A stretch of DNA of 64,000 bases from Spirochaetia bacterium (GTDB lineage Bacteria > Spirochaetota > Spirochaetia > SZUA-6 > Bin103): contig CBDAOI010000003.1 of assembly GCA_965198005.1 (NCBI GenBank), positions 1,024,001-1,088,000 on the forward strand, given 5' to 3'. The translations under genes were made by a program, and so were the position numbers. Shown piece after piece: positions 22,776-55,249 of the stretch (position 1 is the first letter of the stretch; each line of letters starts with the position of its first letter). The notes beneath the pieces are model-generated. The model had not been told where the DNA came from. It did no database searches and saw only the letters and a list, made by a program, of their open reading frames with translations.

Positions 22776-22779
22776 AACC

Positions 22780-23090: not shown

Positions 23091-23094
23091 CACC

Positions 23095-23690: not shown

Positions 23691-23993
23691 GGCGTGATCC
23701 GGCTCACCCGGGCCCTGGCCGCGGACAACATCAACGTCAACTGCATCTGCCCCGGGGTGGTGTACGGCGCGACGTGGGAATGGCTGGCGGCAAAGAAGAT
23801 GCAGTACGATCCCGCGACCGCGGGCATGGACCCGAAGGACTACTTCGACCGCTACGTCGGCTCCGCCGGGCCGCTCCAACGCCCGCAGGACCCCGAGGAC
23901 GTGGGCAACGCCGTGGTGTTCCTGGCCTCGGAAGCGGCCCGCAACATCACCGGCCAGGCGCTGAACGTCAACGGCGGCCGGCTCATGCTGTAG
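23691..23993 (+). pseudogene. SDR oxidoreductase C-terminal fragment
   Basis: NINVNCICPG...PEDVGNAVVFLAS...ITGQALNVNGG. Confidence 0.8.
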
Positions 23994-24016
23994 GCACGCC
24001 GGCGAAGTGCGACTGA

Positions 24017-25747: not shown

Positions 25748-26478
25748 TCAGGCGCGGCGCGGGTGAACCTTGGCCACGGCGAGCAGCGACTCCACGCAGC
25801 CCCGCAGCGACTCGTCGAACGGGCGGAAGCGTACGCCGTCAGCACCGTGGCCAAGCTGGAGGTCACGACCACTCGGCCCACGGTCTCGAACCGGGCGATG
25901 CTGGCGATGGTGTGATCGCAGACCATGCGCACGCGTCGCAGCGCGTCAAGGTGTCAGCGCGTCGGGGTAGTACGTCCGGTGCGCGCGGCCTCGACCGCGT
26001 CCGTCACCTCGGCGCGCTTGGCGCTGCTCTCGGCTGCGTTGCGACCGCAGATCTGGCCACCGTCGATCACGATGTCCTGGCCGGTCACGAAGCTGGCGTC
26101 GTCGCTGGCCAGGTAGAGTGCGCCCTTGGCGATGTCGTCGGGGAAGCCGGAGCGGGTCAGGGCGACCCGGCGCTTCAGGACCTCGGCCAGGGCCGCCAGA
26201 CTGCGCTCGGTGGCCGCGGCATCGAGGCCGCCGCCCCAGAAGATCGGCGTCGCGATCGCGGCGAGATGCTGTTGACCCGGATGTTGCACGGGCCCAGCTC
26301 CACCGCCGCCACGCGCGTGGCCGCCACCACCGCCGCCTTGGCCGCGCTGTAGAGGATGGACCCGTGGCCGACGCGGTGGGCGGCGACGCTGGCGTTGTTG
26401 ACGATCGAGCCGCCGCCCCCGCGTTTCATGTGCGGGACGGTGTGCTTGATCGCCAGCAGCACGCTGTTGAACAGCAGC
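25748..26478 (-). repeat. Deleted, diverged duplicate of 30577-32247 (epimerase plus SDR)
   Basis: Three colinear blocks matching about 30577-30670, 31244-31339 and 31699-32247. Confidence 0.9.
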
Positions 26479-26653
26479 TCCGACGTTTCGGCTTCCGCGG
26501 CTTCCGCAGCAACCAGGAGGTTGCGGCCAAGTACTTCAGGGATGAAGCCGCCCCGGACTTGAGCACGGCTTGCAACGACCATCCTTCGTTGTTCGAGCGT
26601 TGGCGACACCACGGGCGTGTTCCGGACCGAGTGCCGGCCAGACCGATCCGCTG

Positions 26654-32775: not shown

Positions 32776-33021
32776 ATGAAGTCGTTCAACGTGCGGCACA
32801 TCCAGCATCGGCTCGCCGACGTGCTTGCCGAAGTCGAGGGCGGCGAGGAGATCGAGATCGTGCGTCGCGGCCGTCCGGTGGCGCGGATCGTTCCGTTGCG
32901 GTTGGTCGCGCCGCCGTGCGACTGGAGCCACGCCGCGGGTCGCCTGCGGGAAGCCTACTCCGAGCCTGTCGGCGGCATTGCTGCAGCGGATCTCATTGCC
33001 GATGGGCGCGGCGAACGGTGA
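32776..33021 (+). CDS. Phd/YefM-family antitoxin, probably leaderless
   Basis: LADVLAEVEGGEEIEIVRRGRPVARIVP; TTGACA-17-CATTCT upstream. Confidence 0.85.
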   Translation: MKSFNVRHIQHRLADVLAEVEGGEEIEIVRRGRPVARIVPLRLVAPPCDWSHAAGRLREAYSEPVGGIAAADLIADGRGER

Positions 33022-34779: not shown

Positions 34780-34807
34780 TTGACGTTTTCTCATGAGACC
34801 GTATTAT
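34780..34807 (+). promoter_or_regulatory. Sigma70-type promoter for the fli/flh operon
   Basis: TTGACG-16-TATTAT. Confidence 0.55.
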
Positions 34808-34918
34808 AGAACACTACGTTGCCCGCCCCACGCGGCGGGGACGGGGTCGCTGTTCGTGGGAGCCGCTTTCCCGCCCTGGAAGTTGGCCGAGGCGAACCGC
34901 GAAAACTGGGGGAAATGC

Positions 34919-35914
34919 GTGGACGTTATCAGTCAACGCCGCACGGCGCCGCCGCGGCGCACCGGCGACGCCGGCATCGGTCAGCCGGCTGTCAGGCCGC
35001 TCAGCCTGGGGCGGCCGGAGCACCTGTCGCCCGAACAGATCGCCGGACTGTCGGCGGTGCACGAGGGCTTCGCCCGGCGCGCCGGCGAGGCGCTGTCGGC
35101 GTACCTGCGCAGCCCGGTCCGACTCCACCTGAAGACCGTTCAGCAGCTCTCGTACGAGGAGTGCGCCCGGGCCCTGCCGGATCCCGGCGCCCTGGCCGTG
35201 GTGGAGTTGGAGCCGTTCGCCGGCACGGCGCTGCTGGCGGTCGATCAACCGTTCGCGTTTGCGGCGATAGACCGGCTGCTTGGCGGCCGGGGCGACTCTG
35301 CGGCGCCCGCGCGCGGCCTGAGCGACATCGAGCGCGCGGTAATGGAGAACATCGTGCACCGGCTGATGGCGCCTCTGGCCGCGGCGTGGCAGCCGGTACG
35401 GGCGCTCCGGCCGCGGTTGAGCCGCATCGAAACCGCCCCGGAACAGGCCCGGATCGCCGCGCCGCGGGAGGCCGTGGTGCGGCTGACGTTCGACCTCCGC
35501 CTGCGCGCGGCCGGGACCATGCATTTCCTGATTCCTCTTTCGGCCCTGGCCCCGGTCAGGAGCAGGCTCGGACCACGGTCGTGCGGGCACGCCGAGCGCC
35601 GGGAGGAGCGCGGCGCCGAAGCCGGCGGCCGCGGCGGCGGCCGCGCGCGCTCGCAACGGGCGACGCTCGGTGAGTTGCTGCGGGCGGCGCCGTTGCCGGT
35701 GACCGTGGAGCTCGGGGGCGCCTGCGTACCGTTGCGCGCCATCCTCGAGCTGACGGCGGGCGACGTGCTGCCGCTGGACCGGGTGCGGCCGGGCGACGAG
35801 CTGGCGGTTAAGGTAGGCGGCAGAACGAAGTTCATGGGGCGGCCGGGCGTGGTAGGCGGCCGGCTCGCCGTCCAGATCCGGGCACCGGCGCGGGTCGGGG
35901 GCGGGCCGGAATGA
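34919..35914 (+). CDS. fliM: Flagellar switch protein FliM (divergent)
   Basis: RPEHLSPEQI, HEGFAR, QLSYEE, IDRLLGGRG, IETAP, C-terminal SpoA domain. Confidence 0.9.
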   Translation: MDVISQRRTAPPRRTGDAGIGQPAVRPLSLGRPEHLSPEQIAGLSAVHEGFARRAGEALSAYLRSPVRLHLKTVQQLSYEECARALPDPGALAVVELEPFAGTALLAVDQPFAFAAIDRLLGGRGDSAAPARGLSDIERAVMENIVHRLMAPLAAAWQPVRALRPRLSRIETAPEQARIAAPREAVVRLTFDLRLRAAGTMHFLIPLSALAPVRSRLGPRSCGHAERREERGAEAGGRGGGRARSQRATLGELLRAAPLPVTVELGGACVPLRAILELTAGDVLPLDRVRPGDELAVKVGGRTKFMGRPGVVGGRLAVQIRAPARVGGGPE

Positions 35915-36273
35915 GTGCCGCCGACGTGCAGCCCATGCAGCTTGCCAGCCTGCAGCCGGAGGCCGAAACCGGCCACCACCGGACGCCGGCCGACATCGGG
36001 TTCCTGAAGGACGTGGACCTGCGGATCACGGTGGAGCTCGGCGGCACCACGCGGACGATCGGGGAGATTCTGGGCCTCGGCACCGGGTCGGTGATCGAGC
36101 TCGACAAGCTGGCGGGCGAGCCGGTCGAGATCCTGGTCAACCGCACGCCGATCGCCCGCGGCGAGGTGGTGGTGATCGACGACGCGTATGGCGTGCGGGT
36201 CACGGAGATCATGGCCGGCGTGCGGATGGGCGACGATGGAGCGGGCAACGGCTCCCGCGTCGAGGCGGGCTAG
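35911..36273 (+). CDS. fliN: Flagellar switch protein FliN
   Basis: TVELG...IELDKLAGEPVEILVN...GEVVVID..YGVRVTEI. Confidence 0.93.
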   Translation: MSAADVQPMQLASLQPEAETGHHRTPADIGFLKDVDLRITVELGGTTRTIGEILGLGTGSVIELDKLAGEPVEILVNRTPIARGEVVVIDDAYGVRVTEIMAGVRMGDDGAGNGSRVEAG

Positions 36274-36286
36274 CGGCCTGCGCACC

Positions 36287-37003
36287 GTGGGTCGCCGCAG
36301 GCCGGCACGCGCACCCGCGGCACTGGTACTGCTGCTCATCGGGAGCGCGGTGCTTGGGCTGATCGGTCCGCTCGCCGCCCAGGAGCCGCAGCCGTCCACG
36401 CCGGAGCCGGCGGCGGGCGCCGCCGATCCCGCGCGCGACCTGACCCCGCTGCCCGGAACCGGGGAGTCGGCCGCGCTGGCGGTTGCACGCGCTCCCGCCG
36501 GCGGCGCGGCCCCGTCCACCTGGGACTTCGTGCGCATGGTGCTGGTGCTGGCCGCGGTGCTGGCCGCCATCTATCTGGTTTTCCTGTTGGTCAAGCGCAG
36601 CACGTCGGGACGGGTGCGGGAGAACGACCTGATCACCCTGGTCGGCTCGCGCACGCTCGGCGGCGGGCGCCACCTGCACTTGGTGCGGGTGGGTACGTCC
36701 TACTACCTGGTGGGGGCGGCGGACGAGTCGGTCAACCTGATTGCCGAGATTACCGACGGTGAGAGCCTCGACACGCTGAAGCTCGAGCTGTCCACGGCAA
36801 CGGTCGCGGGGCGGCGCAGTTTTGCGGACGTGCTCGGCGAGGCGTTCGGCGGCATCGGCGCGGGCGGCAGCCGGGGCCACGGTCACGGCGTCCTGCTTTC
36901 CGGCGGCGAGGCCGCCGCCGGAAGCGTGCTCGGCCAGCGGCGCCGCGGGGTCCAGAACGTGCACCGTCGACCCGGGCGGGGAGGGGCCGATGCCGGCAGT
37001 TGA
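36287..37003 (+). CDS. fliO: Flagellar biosynthesis protein FliO (start uncertain)
   Basis: DFVRMVLVLAAV TM segment, LHLVRVG..YYLVG, synteny. Confidence 0.8.
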   Translation: MGRRRPARAPAALVLLLIGSAVLGLIGPLAAQEPQPSTPEPAAGAADPARDLTPLPGTGESAALAVARAPAGGAAPSTWDFVRMVLVLAAVLAAIYLVFLLVKRSTSGRVRENDLITLVGSRTLGGGRHLHLVRVGTSYYLVGAADESVNLIAEITDGESLDTLKLELSTATVAGRRSFADVLGEAFGGIGAGGSRGHGHGVLLSGGEAAAGSVLGQRRRGVQNVHRRPGRGGADAGS

Positions 37004-37793
37004 CCGCCGCTGGTGCGCCGGCGGCCTGCTCGCGCTGCTGGTGCTGGGCCAGCTCCTGGCACCGGCCCCGGCGGCCGCCCAGGAGCTGGTGGACGCGCTC
37101 GCCGACGGTGTGGGGTTTCCGTTCGTCGATCTGTCGGTGCGCGACGCCCAGTCGAACCGGGAAGTGCTGCTGTCGCTGCAGTTCCTGCTGCTGCTGGCGG
37201 TGGTGTCGCTGGCGCCTTCCCTGATCGTCCTGATGACCTCGTTCGTGCGGCTGGCGATCGTATTCGACTTGGTCAAGCGGGCCTTGTCGCTGCAGCACGT
37301 GCCGCCGCACCAGGTGCTGATGGGCATCGCCCTGTTTCTCACCCTGTTCATCATGTGGCCCACGCTCGACACGGTGAACCGCACCGCGCTGCAGCCGTTC
37401 GCGCGCGGCGAACTGAACACCGAACAGCTCCTGCAGCGGGCCGAGACGCCGGTGCGGGAGTTCATGTTTCGCCAGCTCGGGGACGACGCCGACAACATCC
37501 GTCTGTTCATGCGCATGCGCGACCTGCCGAAGCCGGCCACGCGCGCCGACGTGCCCACCTACATCCTGATCCCCGCCTTCATCCTGCACGAGCTGACGGT
37601 GGCCTTCAAGATCGGGATTCTGATCTTCGTGCCGTTCGTGATCATCGACCTGGTGGTGGCCACGGCACTGATTTCGATGGGCATCATCGTGCTCCCGCCG
37701 ATGCTGATCTCGCTGCCGTTCAAGCTGATCCTGTTCGTGCTGGTGGACGGCTGGGACCTGATCACGATGCAGGTGATCGCGAGCTTTCGCTGA
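36990..37793 (+). CDS. fliP: Export gate protein FliP
   Basis: SLAPS...MTSFVR, PPHQVL, LIPAFILHEL, PFVIIDLVV, LPFKLILFVLVDGW. Confidence 0.95.
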   Translation: MPAVDRRWCAGGLLALLVLGQLLAPAPAAAQELVDALADGVGFPFVDLSVRDAQSNREVLLSLQFLLLLAVVSLAPSLIVLMTSFVRLAIVFDLVKRALSLQHVPPHQVLMGIALFLTLFIMWPTLDTVNRTALQPFARGELNTEQLLQRAETPVREFMFRQLGDDADNIRLFMRMRDLPKPATRADVPTYILIPAFILHELTVAFKIGILIFVPFVIIDLVVATALISMGIIVLPPMLISLPFKLILFVLVDGWDLITMQVIASFR

Positions 37794-38074
37794 TGGACGG
37801 GGCCATGACAATGGGCGCGGCGGTGACTCTGGCGCGCGACGGCGTGCTGCAGTTGCTGATGATCGCGGGACCGATCCTCGGGGTGAGCGTGATCGTCGGC
37901 CTGGTGATCTCGATTCTCCAGGCGACCACCTCGATTCAGGAGCAGACGCTCACCTTCGTCCCCAAGATCCTCGCCCTGCTCGGCGTGGTATTCCTGCTCG
38001 CGCCCTGGCTCGGCGGTTCGATGGTGGAGTTTACTCGCCGCCTGTACGCGGCGATTCCGGGGATGGCGCTGTGA
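37793..38074 (+). CDS. fliQ: Export gate protein FliQ
   Basis: VGLVISILQATTSIQEQTLTFVPK. Confidence 0.95.
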   Translation: MDGAMTMGAAVTLARDGVLQLLMIAGPILGVSVIVGLVISILQATTSIQEQTLTFVPKILALLGVVFLLAPWLGGSMVEFTRRLYAAIPGMAL

Positions 38075-38916
38075 CCGCGGGCGGACTGCTGGACGGGCTG
38101 GTGACGCTCGACGACTGGTACGTGGGCCTGCTGGTATTTGCCCGGGTGCTCGCCATGATCCAGGTGGCGCCGCTGTTCTCGTCGTCCGCCGTCCCCCAGA
38201 TCGCCAAGTTCGGTCTGGCGCTGTTCCTTACGGTGATTCTGCTGCCGTGGGTGCTGGAGCGCGGCTATCCGGTGCCCGCGTCCGGCGTGCAGTATGCACT
38301 GCTGCTGCTCGGTGAGGCGCTGGTGGGCCTGCTGATCGGGTTTCTGATCTACCTGGCGGTCGCGGCGTTTCAGGTGGCGGGGCAGTTCCTTTCGCTGCAG
38401 CTCGGGTTCGACTCGGCCGAGGTGTTCGACCCGTTCAGCCGCAGCTCGCTGCCGTCGCTCGGCCAGTTGTTCCACCTGCTCGCGCTGCTGGTGTTCCTGA
38501 GCGTCGGCGGGGTGCACCGGTTCATGCTGACCGGCCTGCTCGGTTCGTTCCAGGCGCTGCGTGCCGGCGATCTGGCCGCGCCGGCGCTGCTGGGCACGCT
38601 GTCGCGCGGTCTGGGCACCCTGTTCGCGACCGCGTTCGCCATCGCGTTTCCGGTGTTCGGCGCGCTGGCGCTGGTGTCGGTCGCCCTGGCGCTGTTGGCC
38701 AAGGCGGCGCCGCAGATGAACCTGCTCATTCTGGGCGTGCCGATCGCGACGGCCGCCGGGCTGGTGATCCTGGTGCTGGCGCTGCCGGTGCTGCTGGAGG
38801 CGGTGGCGGCGGTCATCGACGGAGCGTTCGTGGAGTTGCGCCAACTGCTCGCGCGGCTGGCCGCCGAGCCCCGGCCGGCGCTGGATTCGGCCGCGGTCAG
38901 GGGAGGAGCGCTGTGA
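38071..38916 (+). CDS. fliR: Export gate protein FliR
   Basis: FARV...APLFS, AGQFLSLQLGF, KAAPQMNL. Confidence 0.92.
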   Translation: MTAGGLLDGLVTLDDWYVGLLVFARVLAMIQVAPLFSSSAVPQIAKFGLALFLTVILLPWVLERGYPVPASGVQYALLLLGEALVGLLIGFLIYLAVAAFQVAGQFLSLQLGFDSAEVFDPFSRSSLPSLGQLFHLLALLVFLSVGGVHRFMLTGLLGSFQALRAGDLAAPALLGTLSRGLGTLFATAFAIAFPVFGALALVSVALALLAKAAPQMNLLILGVPIATAAGLVILVLALPVLLEAVAAVIDGAFVELRQLLARLAAEPRPALDSAAVRGGAL

Positions 38917-39992
38917 GCGGCTGGTCCGGCGCGGAACACGAGGGGCGTACCGAGGCCCCCAGCGCCGCCCGACTGCGGGCTGCCCGCAGCGCGGGAGTGG
39001 TGCCGCGCACCACCGAGCTGCCGGCGGCGATGACGCTGGTGGGCGCGGTCGCGGCCCTGGCGGTGCTGGGACGTTCGGCGGTGGCCACGGTGAGGGAGAT
39101 GCTGCGCGTGTTCTTGATGCAGGCTGCCACGCCCGAGGTGGCGGCCACGCCGGCGAGCGCCGAGCTGGCATTCTCCTACCTGCTCCGTCTGGTGCTGCCC
39201 GTGGCCGGGATCGGCTTGGTGGCCGCGCTGGCCGGGAATCTGGTGCAGGTCCGGCCGCGGCTCGCGGTCAGACCGGTTGCGCCCGATTGGCACCGGATCG
39301 TTCCCCGGTTCCTCAGTTACTTCAGGCGTGCGCTGTTTTCCGCCGAGGCGGCCTACCGGCTGGCCGCCACCGCGCTCAAGGTGCTGGTCATCGCGGCGCT
39401 CGCGGGCGCGACCATTCACGCCGTGCTCGAGCGGCTGGCCGGTAGCGTGCGGATGCCGCTCGAAGCCGCCGGCGCACTGTTAGCGGCGGCGGCGCTGCGC
39501 ATGGCCGGCAGCGTGGCGCTGCTGCTGCTGGCCCTGGCGATTGCCGACTATCTGGTGCAGCGCCGGCGCCACCGCCGGGCACTGCGGATGACCCCGCGCG
39601 AGGTGCGCGAGGAGCGCCGCCGGCAGGAGCCCGATCCCCAGGTGCGCCGCCGGCTGCGCGCCCGCATGCGCGAGTTGCTGTCGCGCGACCTGGCGCGGCA
39701 GGTGGCGGGTGCGGCGGCGGTCATCACCGGCGGCGCGCGCTGGGCGGTGGCGGTGCGCTGGACCGGGCACGCCCTGGCGGCGCCGGTGGTGGTGGCCAAG
39801 GGGCTGGACGAGGCCGCCGGCAGGATCCGCGCGGCCGCCGCCGCCCACCCGGTGCCGCTGGTGGAGCGCCCGCAGTTGGCGCGGGTGCTGGCCGAGTACG
39901 TCGAGGTCGGCGACCCGGTCCCCGCCGCGTACTTCCGGCCGCTGGCGGAGGCACTGGCGCGGACCGCACCGGGGGAGGTGCCGGATGGCTGA
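38913..39992 (+). CDS. flhB: FlhB, lacking the NPTH autocleavage motif
   Basis: RTEAPS...L..AR..G, LRMT..EV.EE...EPDP, VITGGARWAVA, APVVVAKG, LAR.L. Confidence 0.9.
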   Translation: MSGWSGAEHEGRTEAPSAARLRAARSAGVVPRTTELPAAMTLVGAVAALAVLGRSAVATVREMLRVFLMQAATPEVAATPASAELAFSYLLRLVLPVAGIGLVAALAGNLVQVRPRLAVRPVAPDWHRIVPRFLSYFRRALFSAEAAYRLAATALKVLVIAALAGATIHAVLERLAGSVRMPLEAAGALLAAAALRMAGSVALLLLALAIADYLVQRRRHRRALRMTPREVREERRRQEPDPQVRRRLRARMRELLSRDLARQVAGAAAVITGGARWAVAVRWTGHALAAPVVVAKGLDEAAGRIRAAAAAHPVPLVERPQLARVLAEYVEVGDPVPAAYFRPLAEALARTAPGEVPDG

Positions 39993-41997
39993 CGCAAAGA
40001 CCGCCGGCCCGTACGCCTTCAGCGGCTGGCAGCGGCGCAGCGACGTGCTGGTGGCCCTGTTCGTGATCGTGTTCATCCTGATGATGTTGATTCCGCTGCC
40101 GGCAGTGGTGCTCGACCTGTTCATGGCGCTCAACATCTGTCTCGGCCTGCTGGTCATTCTGATCGTGCTCTACACCCGGAGTCCGTTGGAGTTCACCATC
40201 TTTCCGACGCTGCTGCTGCTGGCCACGGTGTTCGGGCTGGCTCTCAACGTCTCGTCGACGCGGCTGATTCTGGCACAGGGCGCGGCCTTCGAGGGTCGCA
40301 TCGTGCGCGCGTTCGGAAGCTTCGTCGTGGGCGCTCCGGGTACCGCCGGCTACGTCATCGGCGCGATCATCTTCACCATGATCATGGCCGTGCAGTTCGT
40401 GGTCATCACCAAGGGCGCCACGCGGGTAGCCGAGGTGGCGGCCCGCTTCACCCTGGACGCCCTTCCCGGCAAGCAGATGGCGATCGACGCGGAGTACAAC
40501 TCCGGCCTGCTGTCGGAAGCGGAAGCGACGCGGCGCAAGAACGAGCTGCGGCGCGAGACCGACTTCTACGGCGCCATGGACGGCGCCTCGAAGTTCGTGT
40601 CCGGGAACGTGCGCGTCGGGGTTCTGATCACGCTGATCAACCTGGTCGGCGGGCTGATCGTGGGCGTCGCGGTGCGCTCCGAGCCCCTGGCCGCGGCGGC
40701 GGGAACCTACGTGTCGCTGACCATCGGCGACGGCCTGGTAACGCAGCTCCCGGCGCTGCTGATTTCCACCGCCACCGGGATCATCGTGACGCGCGCCGTC
40801 TCCGATGCCTCGTTCGGCCGCGACCTGGCGCGCCAGCTTGCGCTGCACCATCGGCCGTTCTACATCGCCGCGGGTTTCCTCGCGGTGCTTGCCCTGCTGC
40901 CCGGCTTTCCCGTGCACGTGTTGCTGCCGCTGGCCGCGGTGCTCGGCTGGTGCGGCCATGCCATCGGCCGCCGGCAGGCGGGCGCCGCCGGCGCCGAACC
41001 ACCAGCCGCCACCGAGCCGGGCCCTGCCGCGCGGGCGGCGTCGCCGCCAGCCGCCGCCGCGCCGGTGGCCCCCGTGTCACCGGTGGCGCCGCCCGATCCG
41101 CTGGCGGTCGAGTTGGGGTATGGACTGGTGCCGCTGGCCGAGGAGGAGGGCGGTACCGACCTGTTGCAGCGGCTGGCCGCCGTGCGCCGCGCCGCGGCGC
41201 AGGAACGCGGCCTGGTGGTGCCGCCGGTTCGGATTGCCGACAACCTGAACCTGCGGCCCACCGAGTATGCCGTCAAGATCCGCGGCGTCGAGGTGGAGCG
41301 CGACCGCCTGCGCGGCGGCGCGCAGGAGCTGGCTGCCCGCCTGACACGGATCATCGAGCGGCGCGCGGCCGACCTGCTCGGTCGAGAAGACGTGAAGTCG
41401 ATGCTCGAGGCGCTCCGGGGGGACTATCCGACCGTGGTCGAAGAAGCCACGGCGACGCTGTCGGTCGGCGAGATTCAGCGCGTGCTGCAGGCGCTGTTGG
41501 CAGAGGGGGTGTCGATACGCGATCTGGTGGCTATTCTCGAGGCGCTCGGCGACTACGCGCCCGAACGGCGGGACACCGGGTTTCTGGTGGAACGGGTGCG
41601 CCGGACACTGGCGCGGCAGATTTCGCAGCAGCACGCGGGCACGGACGGGGTACTGCACGTCCTGACGCTGGCGCCGGACCTGGAACGGCGGGTGATCGAA
41701 GCCGCCGCGGAGGGCGCCGACGAAGGTCCGAACGGCGGTGCGGCGGCCGGCGGCCGCTCGGCGGAGTGGCGGCGGCACTGGGTCGGCGCCCTGGCGGAGG
41801 CGGTCGCGGAGGCCGAGCGGCGGGGGCACCCGCCGGTGGTGTTGTGCCCCGCGCCGGCACGGGCGTGGGTGCGGGCCGCCACCCGGCGCGAGCTCCCGCA
41901 CCTGGTGTGCCTGGCGGACACCGAGCTGGCCGAGGTCGCCGTGACAGCGCTGGCGGAAGTGCAGCCGGAGCGGCCGGCGGGAGAGGGCGGGCGGTGA
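39985..41997 (+). CDS. flhA: FlhA, lacking cytoplasmic subdomain D2
   Basis: FPTLLL, RVAEVAARFTLDALPGKQMAIDA, FYGAMDGASKFV, TIGDGLV, ELGYGL, VLQALL.EGVSIRDL. Confidence 0.95.
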   Translation: MADAKTAGPYAFSGWQRRSDVLVALFVIVFILMMLIPLPAVVLDLFMALNICLGLLVILIVLYTRSPLEFTIFPTLLLLATVFGLALNVSSTRLILAQGAAFEGRIVRAFGSFVVGAPGTAGYVIGAIIFTMIMAVQFVVITKGATRVAEVAARFTLDALPGKQMAIDAEYNSGLLSEAEATRRKNELRRETDFYGAMDGASKFVSGNVRVGVLITLINLVGGLIVGVAVRSEPLAAAAGTYVSLTIGDGLVTQLPALLISTATGIIVTRAVSDASFGRDLARQLALHHRPFYIAAGFLAVLALLPGFPVHVLLPLAAVLGWCGHAIGRRQAGAAGAEPPAATEPGPAARAASPPAAAAPVAPVSPVAPPDPLAVELGYGLVPLAEEEGGTDLLQRLAAVRRAAAQERGLVVPPVRIADNLNLRPTEYAVKIRGVEVERDRLRGGAQELAARLTRIIERRAADLLGREDVKSMLEALRGDYPTVVEEATATLSVGEIQRVLQALLAEGVSIRDLVAILEALGDYAPERRDTGFLVERVRRTLARQISQQHAGTDGVLHVLTLAPDLERRVIEAAAEGADEGPNGGAAAGGRSAEWRRHWVGALAEAVAEAERRGHPPVVLCPAPARAWVRAATRRELPHLVCLADTELAEVAVTALAEVQPERPAGEGGR

Positions 41998-43295
41998 CCA
42001 CCGCGTACTTCAAGGTGCAGGGCACGACCCCGCGTGAGGCGCTCGCCAACATGAAGCGGCTGTATGGACCGGACGCCCGCATACACTCTCACCGCGTGGT
42101 CAAGATCGGAGGACTGTTCGGCCTGTTCAAGCGCGACGGAGTAGAGATTACCGGGTTCGTGGATCCGCCGGCGGCGTACGCCGCGGCGACCGCGTCGGAA
42201 CCGGCCCCGGCCGACGCGGAGCCGGCCGCGGCCCAGCAGCGGTTGGCGTACGAGCAGCGCCGGATCCTGGAGCAGACGCCCTCCGGGGCCGGTCTGCGGC
42301 GGCTGGTAGACGAGGTGGCGGCACTGCGCGCCCGGCTCGACCGCTCGTTGCCGGAGACCGCCGAGGTGACCGTACGGCTCGGTGAGCATCCGTGTCTGCT
42401 CGCATTGGACGCACTGCTGGTGCGCAACGACTTCGCCCCCGGCTACCGCGCGCGGCTGCTCGATCGGGTACGGTCGGAGTTCACCCTGCAGCAGCTTGAG
42501 GACCGGGCCGCCGTGCACCGCTACGTGGCCCTGCAGATCGGCCGTGCGCTGTCGGTGGCGCAACCCTTGACCGGGACCGACGACACCGCCGCCGGCGGGC
42601 CGCTGGTGTGCATCGTGGTCGGTCCGACCGGCGTCGGCAAGACCACCACAATCGCCAAGCTGGCGGCGATCCACGGCCTCGGCAACGGCGCCGGCGAACG
42701 CCGGAACGTGCACATCGTGACGATCGACAACTATCGCATCGGCGCCCGCCAGCAGATCGAGACCTACGGCGAGATCATGCGCATTCCGGTCACCACGGCC
42801 GAAACCGCGGAGGATCTCAAGAAGGCGGTGGCGCTCGGGCGCGACCTGGACCTCATCTTCGTCGACACGGTCGGCCGCAGTCCGGCCGACTACGCCCGCC
42901 TAGGCGAAATGCGCGCCGTGCTGGAGGCAGCCGGCCGGCGCAGCACGACCCAGCTTGCCGTGAGCGCCACCACCAAGCATCCGGACCTCGAGCAGATCCT
43001 GCGCCAGTTCGAGCCGTTCGGATACGACACCGTGATCGTCACCAAGCTCGACGAGACCGCCGCCATCGGCAACGTGCTGTCCGTGCTGGCGGAGCGCCGC
43101 AAGCCGGTCTCCTACCTGTGCGACGGGCAGGTGGTGCCGCAGGACATCGCACGGGCATCGATCGGACGGTTGCTGGTCAGCCTGGAGGGGTTCGAGCTCG
43201 AGCGTGCGGCGCTGGAGCGTGAGTTCGGGACCTTCGGGGAGGCGCCGGCGCCGTCCGCCGGGAAAGAGCGGATGCCGATCTTGACCTCGCCGTGA
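41994..43295 (+). CDS. flhF: SRP-family GTPase FlhF
   Basis: GPTGVGKTTTIAKLA, DNYRIGA, DTVGRS, TKLDET, GQVVPQDI. Confidence 0.93.
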   Translation: MTTAYFKVQGTTPREALANMKRLYGPDARIHSHRVVKIGGLFGLFKRDGVEITGFVDPPAAYAAATASEPAPADAEPAAAQQRLAYEQRRILEQTPSGAGLRRLVDEVAALRARLDRSLPETAEVTVRLGEHPCLLALDALLVRNDFAPGYRARLLDRVRSEFTLQQLEDRAAVHRYVALQIGRALSVAQPLTGTDDTAAGGPLVCIVVGPTGVGKTTTIAKLAAIHGLGNGAGERRNVHIVTIDNYRIGARQQIETYGEIMRIPVTTAETAEDLKKAVALGRDLDLIFVDTVGRSPADYARLGEMRAVLEAAGRRSTTQLAVSATTKHPDLEQILRQFEPFGYDTVIVTKLDETAAIGNVLSVLAERRKPVSYLCDGQVVPQDIARASIGRLLVSLEGFELERAALEREFGTFGEAPAPSAGKERMPILTSP

Positions 43296-43343
43296 TTTAT
43301 ACCTACGCTCTCGGAAATTGGGTTGTGTCCGTGGGGCGATGCT

Positions 43344-44168
43344 ATGGCGCGTGACAGCCGGGAGCTAGGCGTGGCAGATCCGGTCCCGGAGGCCGCTGAC
43401 GCCGTTCCGGAAGAAGAGCTGTGGAGGCGCTACCGGCAGCGCCGGGATCCCAAGATACGCGACCACTTCATCCGCCAGTACGCGCCGTTGGTCAAGTACG
43501 TGGCCGGCAAGATGGCGGTGGGCATGCCCGGCAACGTGGAGTTCGACGACTTGGTGGGCTACGGCGTGTTCGGGCTGTTCGACGCCATCAAGAAGTTCGA
43601 TCCGACCAAGCACGTCAAGTTCAAGACCTACGCCGTGACGCGGATTCGCGGAGCGATCTTCGACGAGTTGCGCACCATCGACTGGGTGCCGCGCTCGGTG
43701 CGCCAGAAGGCGCGCGAGGTCGAGGAAGCCGTGCGCACCCTGGAAGCGAAGCTCGGACGCGCCGCCACCGACGCCGAGATCGCCAAGAAGATGAACATGC
43801 CCCCGGACGAGTTCCAGCAGCTCATGCTCAAGATCAGCGGCACCTCGATCCTGTCGCTCAGCGACGTGTGGTACAGCGGTGACGACAATGACCGCATCTC
43901 GGTGGCGGAGAGTATCGAGTCTCCGACCAGCCTCAATCCCGATTCGATCGTGGAGAAGGATGAGATCAAGCGGGTGATCGTCGAGGCAATCGGCGAACTG
44001 TCGGAGAAGGAGCAGAAGGTGCTGGTGCTCTACTATTACGAGGATCTCACGCTGAAGGAGATCGGTGAAGTGCTGGAAGTCACCGAGTCGAGAGTCTCCC
44101 AACTCCACACCAAGGCGATCATCCGACTGCGCGCCAAGCTGACCAATCTGAAACGTGGTGTCGCCTGA
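43344..44168 (+). CDS. fliA: RNA polymerase sigma-28 factor (FliA/WhiG)
   Basis: [56 protein letters not shown]. Confidence 0.95.
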
Positions 44169-44255: not shown

Positions 44256-45581
44256 GTGATGCATTATTCCCGGTACCGCACCCTGGAACGGCAGCAGGTA
44301 GTGCCCCGCAACGGGCACAGCCGATTCGCGCGCGCAGCGCCCCGTGCGCTCCGTAACCAGCAGCCGAGCACGCGCCGCCCGTCCGCCCGCCGGACCCCGA
44401 CTGCGTCCCGCTCCCCGGTCGCACTGCTCGGCGCGACGGCGCGGTCCATGGCCCGCGGCCGGAGCAGCGTGCGCGAGCTGGTGCGCAAGGTCCACGCCGC
44501 CGCGGCCGCACTGTTGTCCCGCATGGTAATCCGGCCGATGCATGCCACCGCCACGGTGCTGCTGGTGGTGGCTGCCCTGACCGCAACCACTCTGGCCCAG
44601 ATCGCCCCCAGCGAGCCCAGCCCACGGCTGTCGCCGCAGGTGTTGACGGACGGACTGGCGACCCCGGCGACGGTGCACTTGGCCGCGGCAGTCCCGGGCA
44701 CGGGCGCAGCGCCGGGTTCGGTCGTGGCATCGTCGGCCGGCGCAGCGACCGGAATCGCTACCGTGGCGACCGCCGGCGCCGCGTTGCCTGCCGAGCCGGC
44801 GAACGCGGCGAACCCGGCGAACCCGGCGGTGTCGACCGCCGCCCAGGGCCTCCCGCCAATCCAGCGGGTTCACCCGCACCAGGTGGTGAGCGGCGATACG
44901 CTGTCGGGGCTGGCGGCGCGGTTCGGGATTACGCTCGATACGATCATCAGTTTCAATGACATCAAGCGTGCCCGCGACCTGCGCGTGGGACGCGAGCTGA
45001 CCATCCCCGCCGCATCGGGAGTGCGCTACGAGGTGCGCCGGGGTGACAGTCTGAGCGGCATCGCGGTGCGCCACGGCGTGGATCTCAGCACCGTGCTCGC
45101 GGCCAATGCGGTGCAGGGCGAGTTGATCACGCCGGGGCAGGTCCTGATGATCCCCGGCGGCCGCCTGGGTGAGAACGAGCTCAACCGCGTGCTCGGACGG
45201 CTGTTCGTGTGGCCGGCCCGCGGGCGACTGACCTCCGGCTACGGTTACCGCAACGATCCGTTCACCGGAATCCGCAAGTTTCACAACGGCATCGACATCG
45301 CCAACGCCCAGGACACCGCGGTGGTAACGGCGATGGGTGGCAGCGTGGCGATGCTGGGTTACAACGGAAACTACGGGCGCTACCTGATCATCCGCCATCA
45401 GGATGGCTTCCAGACTCTGTACGCGCATCTGCACAAGATAGTCGTGGAACGCGGCCAACGGGTGCGTCAGGGACAGCGCGTCGGTTCGATGGGGACCACG
45501 GGATACAGCACCGCCAGTCATCTGCATTTTTCCATCTTCCAGCATGGCCGCCACGTCAATCCGGTGAAGCATCTCGACTGA
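44256..45581 (+). CDS. LysM + M23 peptidase
   Basis: Two LysM repeats (GDTLS/GDSLS), HNGID, HLH. Confidence 0.9.
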   Translation: MMHYSRYRTLERQQVVPRNGHSRFARAAPRALRNQQPSTRRPSARRTPTASRSPVALLGATARSMARGRSSVRELVRKVHAAAAALLSRMVIRPMHATATVLLVVAALTATTLAQIAPSEPSPRLSPQVLTDGLATPATVHLAAAVPGTGAAPGSVVASSAGAATGIATVATAGAALPAEPANAANPANPAVSTAAQGLPPIQRVHPHQVVSGDTLSGLAARFGITLDTIISFNDIKRARDLRVGRELTIPAASGVRYEVRRGDSLSGIAVRHGVDLSTVLAANAVQGELITPGQVLMIPGGRLGENELNRVLGRLFVWPARGRLTSGYGYRNDPFTGIRKFHNGIDIANAQDTAVVTAMGGSVAMLGYNGNYGRYLIIRHQDGFQTLYAHLHKIVVERGQRVRQGQRVGSMGTTGYSTASHLHFSIFQHGRHVNPVKHLD

Positions 45582-45610: not shown

Positions 45611-45638
45611 CCCATTCTGCACAATTGTGCAGAATGGG
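45611..45638. repeat. Perfect 28-bp palindrome
   Basis: cccattctgcacaattgtgcagaatggg. Confidence 0.9.
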
Positions 45639-45650
45639 TGGCGGATCGGA

Positions 45651-46655
45651 ATGAGGACTGACGCAAGGCAGCGCCGGCGCGGCCGCGGGAGGCGGTGGCT
45701 GGCGATTCTGGCCGCCGGTTGCGTGGCCGCACTGGTCGTTCAGGCTACCGTGATCGGGCCCACGCGCACGGCGCCGTACGATGAAGGGGAGTACCTGTTG
45801 TTCCCGGGCGATTGGCTGGCCACGACCCGGAACGCCTACCCGCAGGTCGGGGCCGGGGGATTTGCCGCGAGCGCGCACGGGGTCGGCGGCAGCGCCGAGG
45901 GAATCGACCCGCCACCGTTGTCGCTCGCCAGCAAGTACTACCGGGTGCGGCGCGGCGACACCTTTACCGGCATCGCTGCCCGGTTCGGGTTGACCCTGGA
46001 CACGATCGCCTCGTTTAACCGGGACGCCGGGGTCGGGGTGCATCAGCTCGCCATCGGCGAGTTGGTCAAGATTCCGAACCAGGATGGGATCTACCTGCCG
46101 GTAGGCGACGATCTGGCGCAACTCAGCCTGGAACAGGGAGTGTTGCCGGAGACGGTGCTGGTAGCCAACGGCGTCGATCTCGACGAGTTGACGCCGGCCA
46201 CGGAATTGTTCTTTCCCGGCGTCCAGCACTCCGGGCACGAGCTGGCCATGGTGACCGGGGCCGCATTCACGCGTCCGACCGCCGGCTGGGTGAGTTCCCG
46301 GTTCGGTCCGCGGATCGACCCGTTCACCGGCACCCGGAGTTTCCACCACGGGGTCGACCTTGCGGCGCCGCATGGGACCGCGGTGCGCGCCACCCAGGAT
46401 GGCAAGGTAGCCGCCACCGGCCACAGCCGGGTGTTGGGCAAGTACATCATCATCACCCACTACGTGGCCGGGTACTCCTCACTGTACGGCCACCTGCATC
46501 GGGTCTACGTGCGCCGCTCCGAACGGGTGCGCGGCGGTGAGCCGATCGGCACCGTCGGCGCTACCGGGCAGGTGACCGGTCCCCACCTGCACTTCGAACT
46601 ACGGCGCGGCAAGATCCGGCTCGACCCCGCGCAGTTCATCTCCGGTCTCCGCTGA
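45651..46655 (+). CDS. LysM + M23 peptidase
   Basis: YRVRRGDT, HHGVD, YGHL, GPHLHFE. Confidence 0.9.
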   Translation: MRTDARQRRRGRGRRWLAILAAGCVAALVVQATVIGPTRTAPYDEGEYLLFPGDWLATTRNAYPQVGAGGFAASAHGVGGSAEGIDPPPLSLASKYYRVRRGDTFTGIAARFGLTLDTIASFNRDAGVGVHQLAIGELVKIPNQDGIYLPVGDDLAQLSLEQGVLPETVLVANGVDLDELTPATELFFPGVQHSGHELAMVTGAAFTRPTAGWVSSRFGPRIDPFTGTRSFHHGVDLAAPHGTAVRATQDGKVAATGHSRVLGKYIIITHYVAGYSSLYGHLHRVYVRRSERVRGGEPIGTVGATGQVTGPHLHFELRRGKIRLDPAQFISGLR

Positions 46656-52930: not shown

Positions 52931-54967
52931 TCAGCGGCCGGCTGCCGCCGCGGCAGCCTGGGATCGTTTGATCACGTCATCGGCGAGACGTCCGGTCACC
53001 GGCGCGTATTCGGCGAACTCGACCTCGAACGACCCCGTACCCGAGGTCATCGACTTGAGATCGATGGCGTAGCGCAACAGTTCCGCCTGCGGCACCAGCG
53101 CCTTGACCTCGAGCATGCCGCCGCCGATCGGTTCCTGGCCCTGAATGCGTCCGCGCCGCCCGCTCAGGTCCGACAGCACGTCGCCCAGATAATGCTCTTC
53201 GACCGAGACCGTAAGGTTGGAAATCGGCTCCAGCAGCACCGGCCGGGCCTTGCCCAGCGCGTCGCGCAGCGCCCCGCGCGCCGCCAGCGAGAAGGCCAGC
53301 TCGGACGAGTCGACCGAGTGCTCCCTGCCGTCCACCAGCGTCACCTCGATTCCCATCACCGGGTACCCGGCCAGCACGCCGCTGGTCATTCCTTCGCGGA
53401 GCCCTTTCTCGACTCCGGGAATGTAGCCGCGTGAGATGGCGCCGCCGAAGATCTGGTTGACGAACTGGAACTCTTCGCCGCCCCGTGGCACCGGCTTGAC
53501 CTTGATCTCGACCTTGGCGTATTGGCCGTGGCCGCCGGTCTGTTTCTTGTGCTGATACTCGGCCGCCGCCGATCCCGCGATCGTCTCGCGGTAGCCGACC
53601 CGCGGGACCTTGGTCTCGACCTCGATCTTGGCGGCGCGCTTGATCTTGTCCAGCACCACGGTGAGCTGGAGTTCGCCCATGCAGGACGCCACGTTCTCGC
53701 GCGTCTCTCCGTTGTAGGCGACCTTGAAGGTCGGATCTTCCTCCCCGGCGCGGGCCAGGAACTGGCCGAGCTTGTCGTCGTCCTTCTTGGAAGCCGCCGC
53801 CACCGTGACCGCGTGCACCGGCTGCGGCAGATCCAGCGGAGGATAACTGACGTCCGACCCCTGGGCCAGAGTGTCTCCCGTGGCGGCGGTCGACAGCTTG
53901 GTGAGGACGCCGACGTCGCCGGTTGCCAGGGCGGGGGTCTCCGTCAGTTTGCCCCCTTGCAGCAGGTACACCTTCGAAATCCGTTCCTTCTTGCGGTCAC
54001 GCTGGTTGGTCAACTCGGTGTCCGGCTTGAGCGTGCCCTGCATCATCCTGATCCACGACAGCTTGCCCGAGTACTGGTCGAGGCTGGTCTTGAACACGAA
54101 CGCCTCCGGACCGTCCGCGGCGTCGGCGGCGGACGCGTCCGGGGCCGGCGCCGCGAGCTGTACCAGGTCGAGCACGCTGGTGACGCCGGCGCCGGCGGTC
54201 ACGGCGCCCGCTACCACCGGCACCACCGCCCCGGACCGCAGGGCAATGGCGAGACCGGTGCGGATCTCTTCGTCGCTCAGGGTTTCCTCATCGAGGTATT
54301 TCTCCATCAGCACGTCGTCGCCCTCGGCGGCTCCCTCGATGAGATCCTGGCGGTACTGCTCCACCTCGTCGGCCAGCTCGGACGGCACGTCGGCCGCGGC
54401 TTCCCGTCCGTCGTCCTGCACCAGCGCCGTGCCGCGGAGCAGGTCCACCACCCCGGAGAACCCCGCGCCGGCCCCGATCGGAACGGCCACCGGGACGAAG
54501 GTGCCGGGCAGTTTCGCGCGCAGATCGGCGAGCGTGTCGGCGAAGCTGGCGTGCTCCTTGTCCATCTGATTGACGAACACGATCCGCGGCTTGGCCGCGG
54601 CCTCGAGGCGGCGCCACAGCTTGGCGGTCTCGATCTGGACGCCCACGTCGGCGCCGACCGTCACGATCGCGGTTTCGGCCACGTGCAGCGCCGCCACCGC
54701 CTCCCCGATGAAGTCGGCCGAGCCGGGGGTGTCGAGCAGGTTGACCTTGGCGCCATTCCACTCGAGGTGCCCGAGGGCGGTGTGAATCGAGATCCCGCGC
54801 GCTATCTCTTCCTCGGTGCGGTCGCTGACCGACTTGCCGGCGTCCACCGGCGCGAACTTGGGCACCTCGCCGCCGCGCACCAGCGCCAGTTCCATGAGCG
54901 ATGTCTTTCCCGTGCCGCCGTGACCGATGATCGCGACGTTGCGGATGTCGGAAGAAGCGATGCTCAT
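52931..54967 (-). CDS. fusA: Elongation factor G-like protein (EF-G II type)
   Basis: GHGGTGKT, RGISI, DTPG, NQMD, MGELQL, KKQTGGHGQY, HSVDSS. Confidence 0.9.
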   Translation of the reverse strand: MSIASSDIRNVAIIGHGGTGKTSLMELALVRGGEVPKFAPVDAGKSVSDRTEEEIARGISIHTALGHLEWNGAKVNLLDTPGSADFIGEAVAALHVAETAIVTVGADVGVQIETAKLWRRLEAAAKPRIVFVNQMDKEHASFADTLADLRAKLPGTFVPVAVPIGAGAGFSGVVDLLRGTALVQDDGREAAADVPSELADEVEQYRQDLIEGAAEGDDVLMEKYLDEETLSDEEIRTGLAIALRSGAVVPVVAGAVTAGAGVTSVLDLVQLAAPAPDASAADAADGPEAFVFKTSLDQYSGKLSWIRMMQGTLKPDTELTNQRDRKKERISKVYLLQGGKLTETPALATGDVGVLTKLSTAATGDTLAQGSDVSYPPLDLPQPVHAVTVAAASKKDDDKLGQFLARAGEEDPTFKVAYNGETRENVASCMGELQLTVVLDKIKRAAKIEVETKVPRVGYRETIAGSAAAEYQHKKQTGGHGQYAKVEIKVKPVPRGGEEFQFVNQIFGGAISRGYIPGVEKGLREGMTSGVLAGYPVMGIEVTLVDGREHSVDSSELAFSLAARGALRDALGKARPVLLEPISNLTVSVEEHYLGDVLSDLSGRRGRIQGQEPIGGGMLEVKALVPQAELLRYAIDLKSMTSGTGSFEVEFAEYAPVTGRLADDVIKRSQAAAAAAGR

Positions 54968-55215: not shown

Positions 55216-55249
55216 TTGCATCCTTCCTGATTTTGCATGACAATGTCAT
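55216..55249 (+). promoter_or_regulatory. TA promoter with palindromic operator
   Basis: TTGCAT-17-GACAAT; atgaca-a-tgtcat at 55237-55249. Confidence 0.6.

Follow-up and report, generated by a model that had tools for sequence, protein, structure and literature searches.

The flhB locus and its cleavage position

We analyzed a 64,000-nucleotide stretch of DNA from a Spirochaetia bacterium (assembly GCA_965198005.1, contig CBDAOI010000003.1, positions 1,024,001 to 1,088,000; hereafter the window), which carries a run of flagellar export genes that includes flhB. FlhB is described as cleaving itself between Asn269 and Pro270 of an NPTH motif, and an Asn269Ala variant as uncleaved and locked in rod/hook-mode export (PMC3708937, in excerpt). 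FlhB-C is described as the docking site for early subunits (PMC8983047, in excerpt). The window's own genome, G000, consists of four contigs (4.89 Mb, 90.4% complete by markers). Its flhB gene and the segment at the cleavage position are as follows.

38913..39992, plus strand: FlhB, 359 amino acids, full length, with transmembrane domain, linker and C-terminal domain (Pfam PF01312, 12du_A, AlphaFold2, Foldseek)
39729-39740, plus strand: GGAR, residues 273-276, a turn between strands 269-272 and 277-282, at the NPTH position of FlhB/SctU proteins

The assignment to FlhB is secure at the family level. PF01312 (FlhB/HrpN/YscU/SpaS; Bac_export_2) matched residues 11-349 over profile positions 2-333 of 335 (262.2 bits, E 9.7e-78; curated cut-off, 24.4 bits), and solved FlhB chains matched by phmmer at E 3.4e-42 to 1.8e-25, the best being 12du_A (E 3.4e-42). 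The gene sits at the usual place in fliO-P-Q-R-flhB-flhA-flhF, where stop and start codons overlap; the flhB start overlaps the fliR stop by 4 nucleotides. An earlier reading made from the letters alone (the sequence-only reading) had claimed that GGAR replaces NPTH between conserved flanks, and the family alignments bear this out. In the context AAAVITGGARWAVAVRWTGHALAAPVVVAKG, the DNA at 39720-39752 (gtc atc acc ggc ggc gcg cgc tgg gcg gtg gcg) encodes V270 to A280, so that VITGGARWAVA stands, without insertion or deletion, where relatives have VITNPTH(F/Y)AVA. The site had been placed correctly, except that its given end, 39750, falls two bases short of the last codon (39752). The phmmer alignments set 'vitggarwavavrw' ungapped against 'vitnpehfavaikw', 'ivtnpthysvalqy' and 'ivtnpehfsvalry', with GGAR opposite NPEH or NPTH. 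The flanking motifs ALRMTPREVREERRRQEPDPQV and APVVVAKG are kept, and LRMT..EV and EPDP are also there. No Asn-Pro dipeptide occurs anywhere in the 359-residue protein.

Independent assemblies carry the same letters. Logan contigs from three runs of three studies (X1, X2 and X6, one of which may be the assembly's own source) span flhB and list no difference from the window within 39720-39752; the only differences in the gene are three single-base ones, at 38973, 39188 and 39305. A possible underlying NPTH, which would have made GGAR an error, is thus contradicted by these contigs. A separate FlhB with an intact motif did not appear in the assembled genome either: the PF01312 search of G000 returned a single match, three short paralogues of the FlhB C-subdomain, drawn from genome G002 and two flagellated relatives and used as queries, found only FlhB itself, and no NPxH in an FlhB-like context occurred among six-frame open reading frames (ORFs) of at least 40 amino acids.

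The fold around the site is predicted with confidence to be kept. The AlphaFold2 model (61-sequence alignment) had a mean predicted local distance difference test score (pLDDT) of 91.7 and a predicted TM-score (pTM) of 0.73, with strands at 269-272, 277-282, 292-298 and 316-318 and helices at 300-311, 320-329 and 338-349; GGAR forms the turn between the first two strands. The best Foldseek matches were the single-chain, non-cleaving EscU mutants P263A, N262A and N262D (root-mean-square deviation [rmsd] 0.9 Å over 91-92 columns; target-normalised TM-scores of 0.86-0.94), followed by the C-domains of YscU, CT091 and FlhB; over EscU, YscU and FlhB the rmsd ranged from 0.9 to 1.7 Å. Wild-type entries rank lower because they are deposited as two chains. 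The membrane part matched chain 6s3l_K, from a FliPQR-FlhB structure, over 198 columns.

To our knowledge, self-cleavage at NPTH is described as highly conserved and as essential in every FlhB/SctU protein. Structural work on EscU reportedly shows that the chemistry depends on the Asn side chain. Because the site holds no Asn and the protein no Asn-Pro, the established Asn-dependent chemistry would be unable to take place there, and we infer from the sequence that this FlhB does not cleave itself. We regard the window protein as an intact FlhB orthologue by descent which, because GGAR occupies the site and Asn-Pro is missing, would fall outside the functional class of autocleaving switches. 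The further claim that a non-cleavable FlhB cannot switch agrees with the lock reported for Asn269Ala (PMC3708937, in excerpt) and should extend to a protein that has no Asn at the site.

The rest of the flagellar block forms a single plus-strand run from fliM to the sigma-28 gene (34793-44168).

34793..35914, plus strand: FliM (C ring), 373 amino acids (Pfam FliM E 1e-45, FliMN_C E 4.8e-20)
35911..36273, plus strand: FliN (C ring), 120 amino acids (Pfam FliMN_C E 2.1e-24)
36188..37003, plus strand: FliO, start codon uncertain (Pfam FliO E 8.7e-12)
36822..37793, plus strand: FliP, export gate, start uncertain, domain at residues 124-317 (Pfam FliP E 1e-69)
37790..38074, plus strand: FliQ, export gate, true start a few codons inside (Pfam Bac_export_3 E 1.7e-27)
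38071..38916, plus strand: FliR, export gate (Pfam Bac_export_1 E 5.7e-57)
39985..41997, plus strand: FlhA, 670 amino acids (Pfam FHIPEP E 2.6e-207, in two stretches); its start overlaps the 3' end of flhB by 8 nucleotides
41994..43295, plus strand: FlhF, a signal recognition particle (SRP)-type GTPase (Pfam SRP54 E 1.2e-35; 348 bits to FlhF of the flagellated relative G031)
43323..44168, plus strand: sigma-28-type (FliA/WhiG-like) sigma factor (Pfam sigma-70 regions 2, 3 and 4; 445 bits to G031)
44256-45581 and 45627-46655: two LysM-M23 peptidoglycan peptidases directly after the sigma-28 gene, here and in the relative G001

Immediately upstream of fliM, the minus strand carries a gene for a thiamine-pyrophosphate enzyme, so the upstream half that the operon usually has is missing. 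Downstream, secA follows the peptidases on the opposite strand; the peptidase pair may hint at the targets of the surviving sigma-28. FliM lacks the N-terminal CheY-binding peptide LSQDEIDxLL found in FliM of G031, and FliN is the FliN C-terminal domain alone, without the CheX-containing FliY N-terminal part of G031; the CheY-binding peptide is missing from both proteins in G000. In FlhA, a Pro/Ala-rich insertion (AGAAGAEPPAATEPGPAARAASPPAAAAPVAPVSPVAPP) in the linker between the membrane and cytoplasmic domains (window 40990-41140) splits the FHIPEP match into profile positions 2-403 and 455-654. The split recurs in seven of the nine other genomes of the genus that have FlhA (G009 and G010 show the first stretch only) and does not occur in the sister genus.

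Elsewhere in G000, fliF, fliG and flgM are intact lone genes among unrelated neighbours. FlgM (94 amino acids) lies at G000:C3:180104-180280 (L072:8087-8371), and its score of 34.3-34.5 bits exceeds the cut-off of 25. The FliG protein of G000 matches chain 1lkv, the Thermotoga FliG, at 228 bits; compared with that chain, its torque helix keeps the Arg and has ES for the acidic pair DE, which we judged too ambiguous to use.

Other features of the window lie outside the flagellar block. An IS21-type pair at 1856-4258, consisting of an IstB ATPase (E 3e-60) and a transposase whose C-terminal domain is of the Mu-transposase type, adjoins a helicase fragment at the window start. Toxin-antitoxin-type genes occur at 11362-13897, 32776-33021 and 55764-56015 (two PIN-domain proteins with a FitA-like antitoxin, a nucleotidyltransferase/HEPN pair, a Phd/YefM antitoxin and an AbiEi-like fragment). 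At 21716-24016 and 26175-26612, partial Pfam cover suggests gene fragments (UxuA, profile positions 169-351; a solute-binding protein, 183-345; a short-chain dehydrogenase, 80-174) that may be pseudogenes, and the coding signal is lower there. On the minus strand, two EF-G-family GTPase genes lie about 3.4 kb apart (52931-55249 and 58667-60724), one with an N-terminal extension of about 100 amino acids.

Loss of the site and of flagellar genes among relatives

We searched 1.84 billion representatives exhaustively with HMMER and obtained 4905 proteins with E no higher than 1e-10; the best 150 of these, with seven proteins from a word-indexed search, made up a site alignment of 157 sequences. 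Asn-Pro stands at the site in 150 of the 157, as NPTH in 106. The exceptions are the closest database relative of the query (P0002, DQAG, 62% identical), two further members of the window's clade (P0012, HGRR; P0069, DAAR), three proteins outside the clade (P0088, SPTR; P0111, GPSG; P0128, AVGQ) and P0024, a frame-shifted FliR-FlhB prediction in which the site cannot be judged. Using P0128 and P0111 as seeds, we scanned metagenomes and obtained 80 loci (35-50% identity); NPT(E/H) occurs in 69 of the 75 that cover the site, and the other six read HAKE (twice), DGEQ (twice), DSNG and DPTE. Natural loss of Asn-Pro is rare, yet it is found beyond the window's organism. The six metagenome loci (L082, L112, L133, L134, L137 and L138), like P0088, P0111 and P0128, belong to non-spirochaete lineages, and their contigs are ordinary fliOPQR-flhB or flhB-flhA-flhF fragments, with fliI and fliJ also on L138. 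Among the titles and abstract openings returned by a full-text literature search, none described a natural FlhB without a cleavage site, and PMC13277936 yielded nothing relevant on partial or remnant flagellar sets.

We surveyed 40 related genomes and read the cleavage site in every fetched flhB locus. The window's family comprises 24 genomes, G000 included, divided between its own genus, g1 (11 genomes), and the sister genus g2 (13 genomes); G001, G007, G009 and G010 are closed, single-contig relatives. Full-length FlhB is present in nine of the ten other g1 genomes, and in all nine Asn-Pro is gone from an ungapped position. The sequence-only reading had proposed a search for homologues sharing the substitution; what the genus shares is the loss of Asn-Pro, whereas the replacing letters vary: HGGR (G004), HGER (G003, G009), DGRR (G010), DAAR (G001, G005, G006), DPAR (G007) and AAAR (G008). 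The g1 FlhBs retain APVVVAK and the strands on either side of the site (VVI../..AVALRW), and Arg is the fourth site residue in 12 of 13 clade sequences read. In the seven remaining families of the order, NP(T/V)H occurs in all 16 FlhBs read at the site; flhB of a 17th genome, G033, is split over two contig ends and was left out of this count. In 13 of these 17 flagellated genomes a second, short match of about 90 amino acids covers the FlhB C-subdomain only; three of these were read. FlhB of G000 is 36-53% identical to those of other g1 genomes and 33-41% to those of the flagellated families; the corresponding values for FlhA are 64-67% and 56-62%. Outside this group, a Streptomyces contig (L060) gave a tblastn match at 10001-10213, 33% identical to FlhB residues 248-335, and may carry a stand-alone FlhB C-subdomain-like gene in a genus without flagella.

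Loss of the site coincides with loss of most of the flagellum. Protein families were searched in five genomes: G000, G001 and G003 (g1), G011 (g2) and G031, a flagellated relative of the same order that served as reference. Flagellin (PF00669), FliK (PF02120) and the rod/hook N-terminal domain (PF00460) were matched in G031 and had no match in the other four, and the chemoreceptor signalling domain was matched 17 times in G031 and never in the others. FliF was matched in all five genomes and FliG in G000, G001, G003 and G031. Only G031 had a FliI-type ATPase (TIGR01026) over the cut-off of 379.5 bits; the matches in G000, at 215.7 bits or less, were taken as F/V-type ATPase genes from their scores and pairing.

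We also searched 30 proteins of the G031 operon by phmmer against all 64,482 six-frame ORFs of G000. Matches were obtained for sigma-28 (445 bits), FlhA (717), FlhB (219), FliP (348), FliG (428) and FliF (428), and for FlhF, FliR, FliQ, FliO, FliN and FliM. At E up to 1e-3, nothing was found for FlgB, FlgC, FliE, FliH, FliJ, FliK, FlgD, FlgE, FlbD, MotA, MotB, FliL, FapA or three unnamed ORFs; FliI retrieved F/V-type ATPase genes only, and FlhG weak MinD/ParA-like matches only. Two MotA_ExbB matches in G000 that were not matched by MotA of G031 were taken as ExbB/TolQ-like. As for an injectisome, no FliI/YscN-type ATPase over the cut-off occurs in G000 (secretin and needle families were not searched), and the synteny of the cluster and its best matches are flagellar throughout.

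Gene order indicates how the set was reduced. FlaA, the sheath protein of periplasmic flagella, occurs in all five flagellated families of the order that were tested and in none of 14 control genomes. The order is therefore spirochaetal, an affiliation that operon synteny also supports, and its ancestor had a complete periplasmic flagellum. The order in G031 is dprA-topA-xerC-hslVU-flgBC-fliEFGHIJ-unnamed ORF-fliK-flgDE-flbD-motAB-unnamed ORF-fliL, continuing with fliM-fliY-fliOPQR-flhBAF-flhG-unnamed ORF-sigma-28-fapA. In G001 it is dprA-xerC-unnamed ORF-hslU-fliF-fliM-fliOPQR-flhB-flhA-flhF-sigma-28-small ORF-two M23 peptidases-secA, and in G011 dprA-xerC-hslU-fliF-fliOPQR-truncated flhB-flhA-sigma-28. 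From this synteny, the missing genes were excised in place from between those that were kept. Across the two genera, the counts are as follows.

Flagellin: g1, only G002 of 11; g2, 0 of 13
Rod domain: g1, only G002 of 11; g2, 0 of 13
FliM: g1, 10 of 11 (not G004, 76% complete); g2, 0 of 13
FliG: g1, 11 of 11; g2, 0 of 13
FliF: g1, 10 of 11 (not G002); g2, 3 of 13
FlhA: g1, 10 of 11 (not G002); g2, 3 of 13
Sigma-28 orthologue (69-81% identity): g1, 10 of 11 (not G002); g2, 13 of 13; 22 of the 23 other family genomes

Of the 24 family genomes, 20 have FlgM-like matches (E up to 0.01), 10 of them over the cut-off; such matches are also found in family genomes without any flagellar export gene.

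The sister genus has gone further. FlhB is missing in 10 of the 13 g2 genomes and kept in G011, G012 and G015, where the match ends between the equivalents of residues 254 and 269; the G011 and G015 frames reach a TGA stop about eight codons short of the cleavage position. These three genomes (L065, G011:C1:3996000-4012000; L028-L030) keep fliF-fliOPQR-flhB-flhA-sigma28, and their FlhA matches FHIPEP better than that of g1 (700-727 bits, in one stretch rather than two).

A second, distant reduction emerged from a phylum sample of 301 genomes, each at least 85% complete, in which FlhB was searched by profile. All 301 gave a match (E up to 1e-20), nearly all at E 1e-94 to 1e-122; the G000 protein scored E 1.4e-77 in this comparison. 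We re-examined five lower-scoring genomes, of which three were cut by contig ends and the remaining two, G176 and G268 (1.5-1.7 Mb), belong to genus g25, of a different family and order in the same class (genomes of 1.2-1.8 Mb, 48% G+C). In both, the FlhB match is limited to profile positions 2/4-241. In G176 it is an open 238-residue frame ending ...DERMKQLLS with flhA directly next; in G268 it contains two in-frame TAA stops. Neither flagellin nor the rod domain was matched in any of nine g25 genomes. The only g25 cluster read, that of G176 (L168, G176:C3:48000-67900), runs dprA-topA-xerC-hslV-hslU-fliF-fliG-fliH-unnamed ORF-fliM and then fliO-fliP-fliQ-fliR-flhB (no C-subdomain)-flhA-flhF-sigma-28, with a FliF of only 312 amino acids. 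At the ancestral hslVU locus, it is the subset retained by the window's genus, apart from FliH. The g1/g2 and g25 reductions are most simply independent, because the other families of the window's order are fully flagellated.

Selection on the retained genes and possible explanations

We compared ratios of nonsynonymous to synonymous substitution rates (dN/dS; Nei-Gojobori on codon alignments) within g1 with those within flagellated relatives of the order.

FlhB, whole: g1, 0.28-0.57 (six pairs); flagellated, 0.09-0.16 (three pairs)
FlhB linker: g1, 0.11-0.36; flagellated, 0.02-0.03
FlhB C-subdomain, from the GGAR column onward: g1, 0.39-0.82; flagellated, 0.07-0.11
FliR: g1, 0.19-0.28; flagellated, 0.05-0.17
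FlhA, N-terminal 450 residues: g1, 0.17-0.24; flagellated, 0.04-0.10
Sigma-28, internal control: g1, same genome pairs, 0.03-0.13

In the three gate-keeping g2 genomes, the ratio was 0.26-0.31 for FlhA and 0.42-0.67 for the truncated FlhB. The sigma-28 control indicates that the method still returns low ratios in the same genomes. We read these values as purifying selection that is weakened on the whole core, most on the FlhB C-subdomain, yet present.

Our favoured explanation, to which we assign a probability of about 0.68, is that the window encodes a non-cleaving FlhB orthologue within a reduced, non-motile remnant of a spirochaetal periplasmic flagellum. A sponge-associated lineage from a flagellated order has deleted in place the rod, hook and filament genes and those for FliK (the hook-length ruler), for the ATPase complex of FliH/I/J, for the MotA/B stator and for chemotaxis, and has kept FliF (MS ring), FliG/FliM/FliN (C ring), the gate of FliO/P/Q/R, FlhB and FlhA, and also FlhF, sigma-28 and FlgM. 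With ruler and late substrates lost, there would have been nothing to switch, selection for the Asn-Pro bond would have ceased and the site would have been free to drift. The four residues would then have changed separately in each sublineage, with the neighbouring strands and the fold kept under weakened purifying selection. An FlhB without the Asn would stay one chain, like N269A mutants locked in the early (rod/hook-type) state. The g2 and g25 genomes would represent the next step, in which the C-subdomain is lost before FliPQR, FlhA, FliF and the membrane part of FlhB. GGAR is a consequence of flagellar reduction, not a new switching mechanism, because the change is common to the genus and variable in sequence; since the replacements differ between species, they look like drift rather than a new motif. 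Taken together, the genomes describe a stepwise, apparently convergent reduction of the spirochaetal flagellum to a membrane core, with loss of FlhB cleavage as an early step. Within this account, the retained genes suggest a core that may still assemble, and we rate the chances that it does so and still does something as about even.

Several observations weigh against this explanation. G000 is 90% complete, and a missing gene may sit in unassembled sequence; the closed relatives G001, G007, G009 and G010 show the same loss pattern. The chief uncertainty about the date of flagellar loss is G002 (81% complete, 510 contigs). Flagellin is matched three times in this genome, alongside FlgB/C-like rod domains, a FliM that scores as canonical and a short paralogue of the FlhB C-subdomain (contigs C183, C212, C64, C79, C262 and C390). 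FliG gives several matches, one of which contains an in-frame TAG. No full FlhB, FlhA, FliF or sigma-28 orthologue was found. G002 may be a flagellated member of the genus with its export genes unassembled, or a mixed bin. The single, scattered positions of fliF, fliG and flgM in G000 and the loss of the whole core in 10 of 13 g2 genomes fit continuing decay. The dN/dS of the FlhB C-subdomain, at 0.68-0.82 in two pairs, is close to neutral on a crude measure in which G+C-biased third positions depress dS and inflate the ratios. RNA gives a weak hint of transcription in which DNA carry-over is uncontrolled. The RNA runs that share words with flhB are sponge metatranscriptomes only (shares of 0.11-0.18), and run X10 holds exact short contigs at 36929-37082, 39771-40025, 43312-43484 and 43554-43763 (depth 2.6-2.9), which cover 9 of the 30 bins of the cluster, the uncovered bins being uninformative either way. 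These contigs place the organism or a near-identical strain in a sponge sample.

A purely relic set, with flhB and the other remaining flagellar genes idle as the last awaiting deletion and GGAR a symptom of a dead set, would account for much of this decay. The ratios of all retained structural genes are two to five times those of flagellated relatives, and the near-neutral C-subdomain in two pairs is what a relic would show. The further losses in g2 (C ring, FlhF and FlhB C-subdomain in three genomes, everything in 10 of 13), the lack of an export ATPase in G000, the dispersal of its fliF and fliG, a shortened FliM in G001 and the two stops in the G268 remnant point the same way. However, the frames of 11-12 genes are still open and full-length across 10 species, among which FlhB identity is only 36-53%, FlhA (0.17-0.24) and FliR (0.19-0.28) have ratios well below 1, and the deletions took intervening genes and spared the retained set. 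Nearly the same subset, with FliH, is kept in place in the 1.2-1.8-Mb genomes of g25, where useless genes should go fast, and FliG of G000 still reaches 228 bits against 1lkv. We therefore consider a dead set unlikely, though it deserves to be taken seriously.

We rate as considerably less probable that the gate has been retained for the secretion of FlgM, an anti-sigma factor, thereby controlling a repurposed sigma-28 regulon for which one FlhB export mode would suffice. No gene of the cluster is better conserved than sigma-28 (445 bits to G031; dN/dS 0.03-0.13), G000 retains a 94-residue FlgM above the cut-off (34.3-34.5 bits versus 25), and the two LysM-M23 peptidases after the sigma gene in G000 and G001 recall the control of autolysins by sigma-D in Bacillus subtilis. 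Yet sigma-28 (69-71% identity) persists in all 13 g2 genomes and a FlgM-like protein in 12, ten of the 13 being without FlhA, FlhB and FliF, so the pair does not need the gate. The genome contains one textbook sigma-28 promoter, TAAA-N14-16-CCGATA, where about 4.4 would be expected, and none lies upstream of the LysM-M23 genes. In model organisms, moreover, FlgM is a late substrate that needs cleaved FlhB.

Switching by other means, whether through another cleavage site or chemistry or through a separate NPTH-bearing FlhB or C-subdomain paralogue, is very improbable. The second, C-subdomain-like gene of about 90 residues in 13 of 17 flagellated relatives and the Arg at the fourth position in 12 of 13 clade sequences would be compatible with it. 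Against it, FlhB of G000 contains no Asn-Pro and the genome no second PF01312 match, the paralogue queries found FlhB itself only and the NPxH pattern nothing in six-frame ORFs of at least 40 amino acids, FliK and late substrates are missing, and the replacement residues vary between species, which argues against a conserved catalytic motif. A sequencing or assembly artefact, a possibility that the sequence-only reading had already discounted, has nothing in its favour and is so improbable as to be negligible, given the agreement of contigs from three studies, the same loss in nine other species of the genus and an intact flhB frame translationally coupled to fliR and flhA.

Beyond the favoured explanation, we offer more tentatively, and with more doubt than belief, that the retained subset (MS ring, C ring, the FliOPQR-FlhB-FlhA gate, FlhF and sigma-28) is a working organelle without a substrate switch, a single-mode exporter or a polar or regulatory platform, carved independently in at least two non-motile spirochaete lineages, the window's sponge-associated family and g25. 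If so, loss of NPTH and then of the C-subdomain would mark the passage from an ordered assembly machine to a one-mode machine, and would offer a natural parallel to the initial step in the conversion of a flagellum into a dedicated secretion system.

Significance and comparison with known systems

The order of loss, in which the cleavage site goes first, the C-subdomain next and the membrane part with FliPQR and FlhA last, distinguishes what FlhB does as a switch from what it contributes structurally to the gate. A missing Asn-Pro or C-subdomain can serve as a sequence marker by which to find other reduced flagellar systems in genomes. Near-identical sets in two unrelated lineages make a use of the export core in its own right (secretion, polarity or signalling) testable, and the question arises here in symbionts of an early-branching animal.

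The window's genus can be set beside other lineages that have reduced their flagella. Sphaerochaeta, non-motile coccoid spirochaetes, lost periplasmic flagella and chemotaxis as this genus did; the window's genus keeps 11-12 genes intact, unlike Sphaerochaeta. Buchnera aphidicola is said to keep the rod, the hook and the FliI ATPase, whereas the genus described here has no rod, hook, FliE or FliH/I/J, so that no channel is encoded beyond the inner-membrane gate. The two are alike in being non-motile and host-associated and in keeping flagellar export and basal-body genes without a filament (PMC8109811, in excerpt).

For the retained parts themselves, the checkpoint of Campylobacter jejuni, in which the type III secretion system core, MS ring and rotor activate signalling, is a precedent for the same subset (export core, FliF and FliG) acting as a platform whatever it exports (PMC3760246, in excerpt). 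That platform, in contrast, serves flagellar gene control in a motile cell. WhiG of Streptomyces is reportedly a sigma-28-type factor kept by non-flagellated bacteria. As with WhiG, a flagellar-type sigma factor persists here, strongly conserved after the loss of motility (23 of 24 family genomes), but the parallel covers the sigma factor alone and neither the export gate nor FlhB. Stand-alone FlhB C-subdomain paralogues, which we take to be of the YlqH/FlhX type and which are present in flagellated relatives of the order, show that the subdomain can exist apart from the membrane part. In contrast, G000 has none of them and its own C-subdomain is fused and, from its residues, presumably uncleavable; g2 and g25 are simply without the subdomain.

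The closest counterparts of the window protein are laboratory mutants (Salmonella FlhB N269A; EscU N262A, P263A and N262D; YscU N263A), which likewise have no cleavable Asn-Pro and share the same strand-turn-strand. The outcome expected in common would be a single-chain C-domain held in the early export state (PMC3708937, in excerpt). The present case differs in being natural and genus-wide, with all four residues replaced variably, and in that FliK and all known early and late substrates are missing, so that the lock would come without visible cost. Whereas knowledge of FlhB without cleavage has so far come from engineered point mutants, this genus provides a natural, clade-wide experiment.

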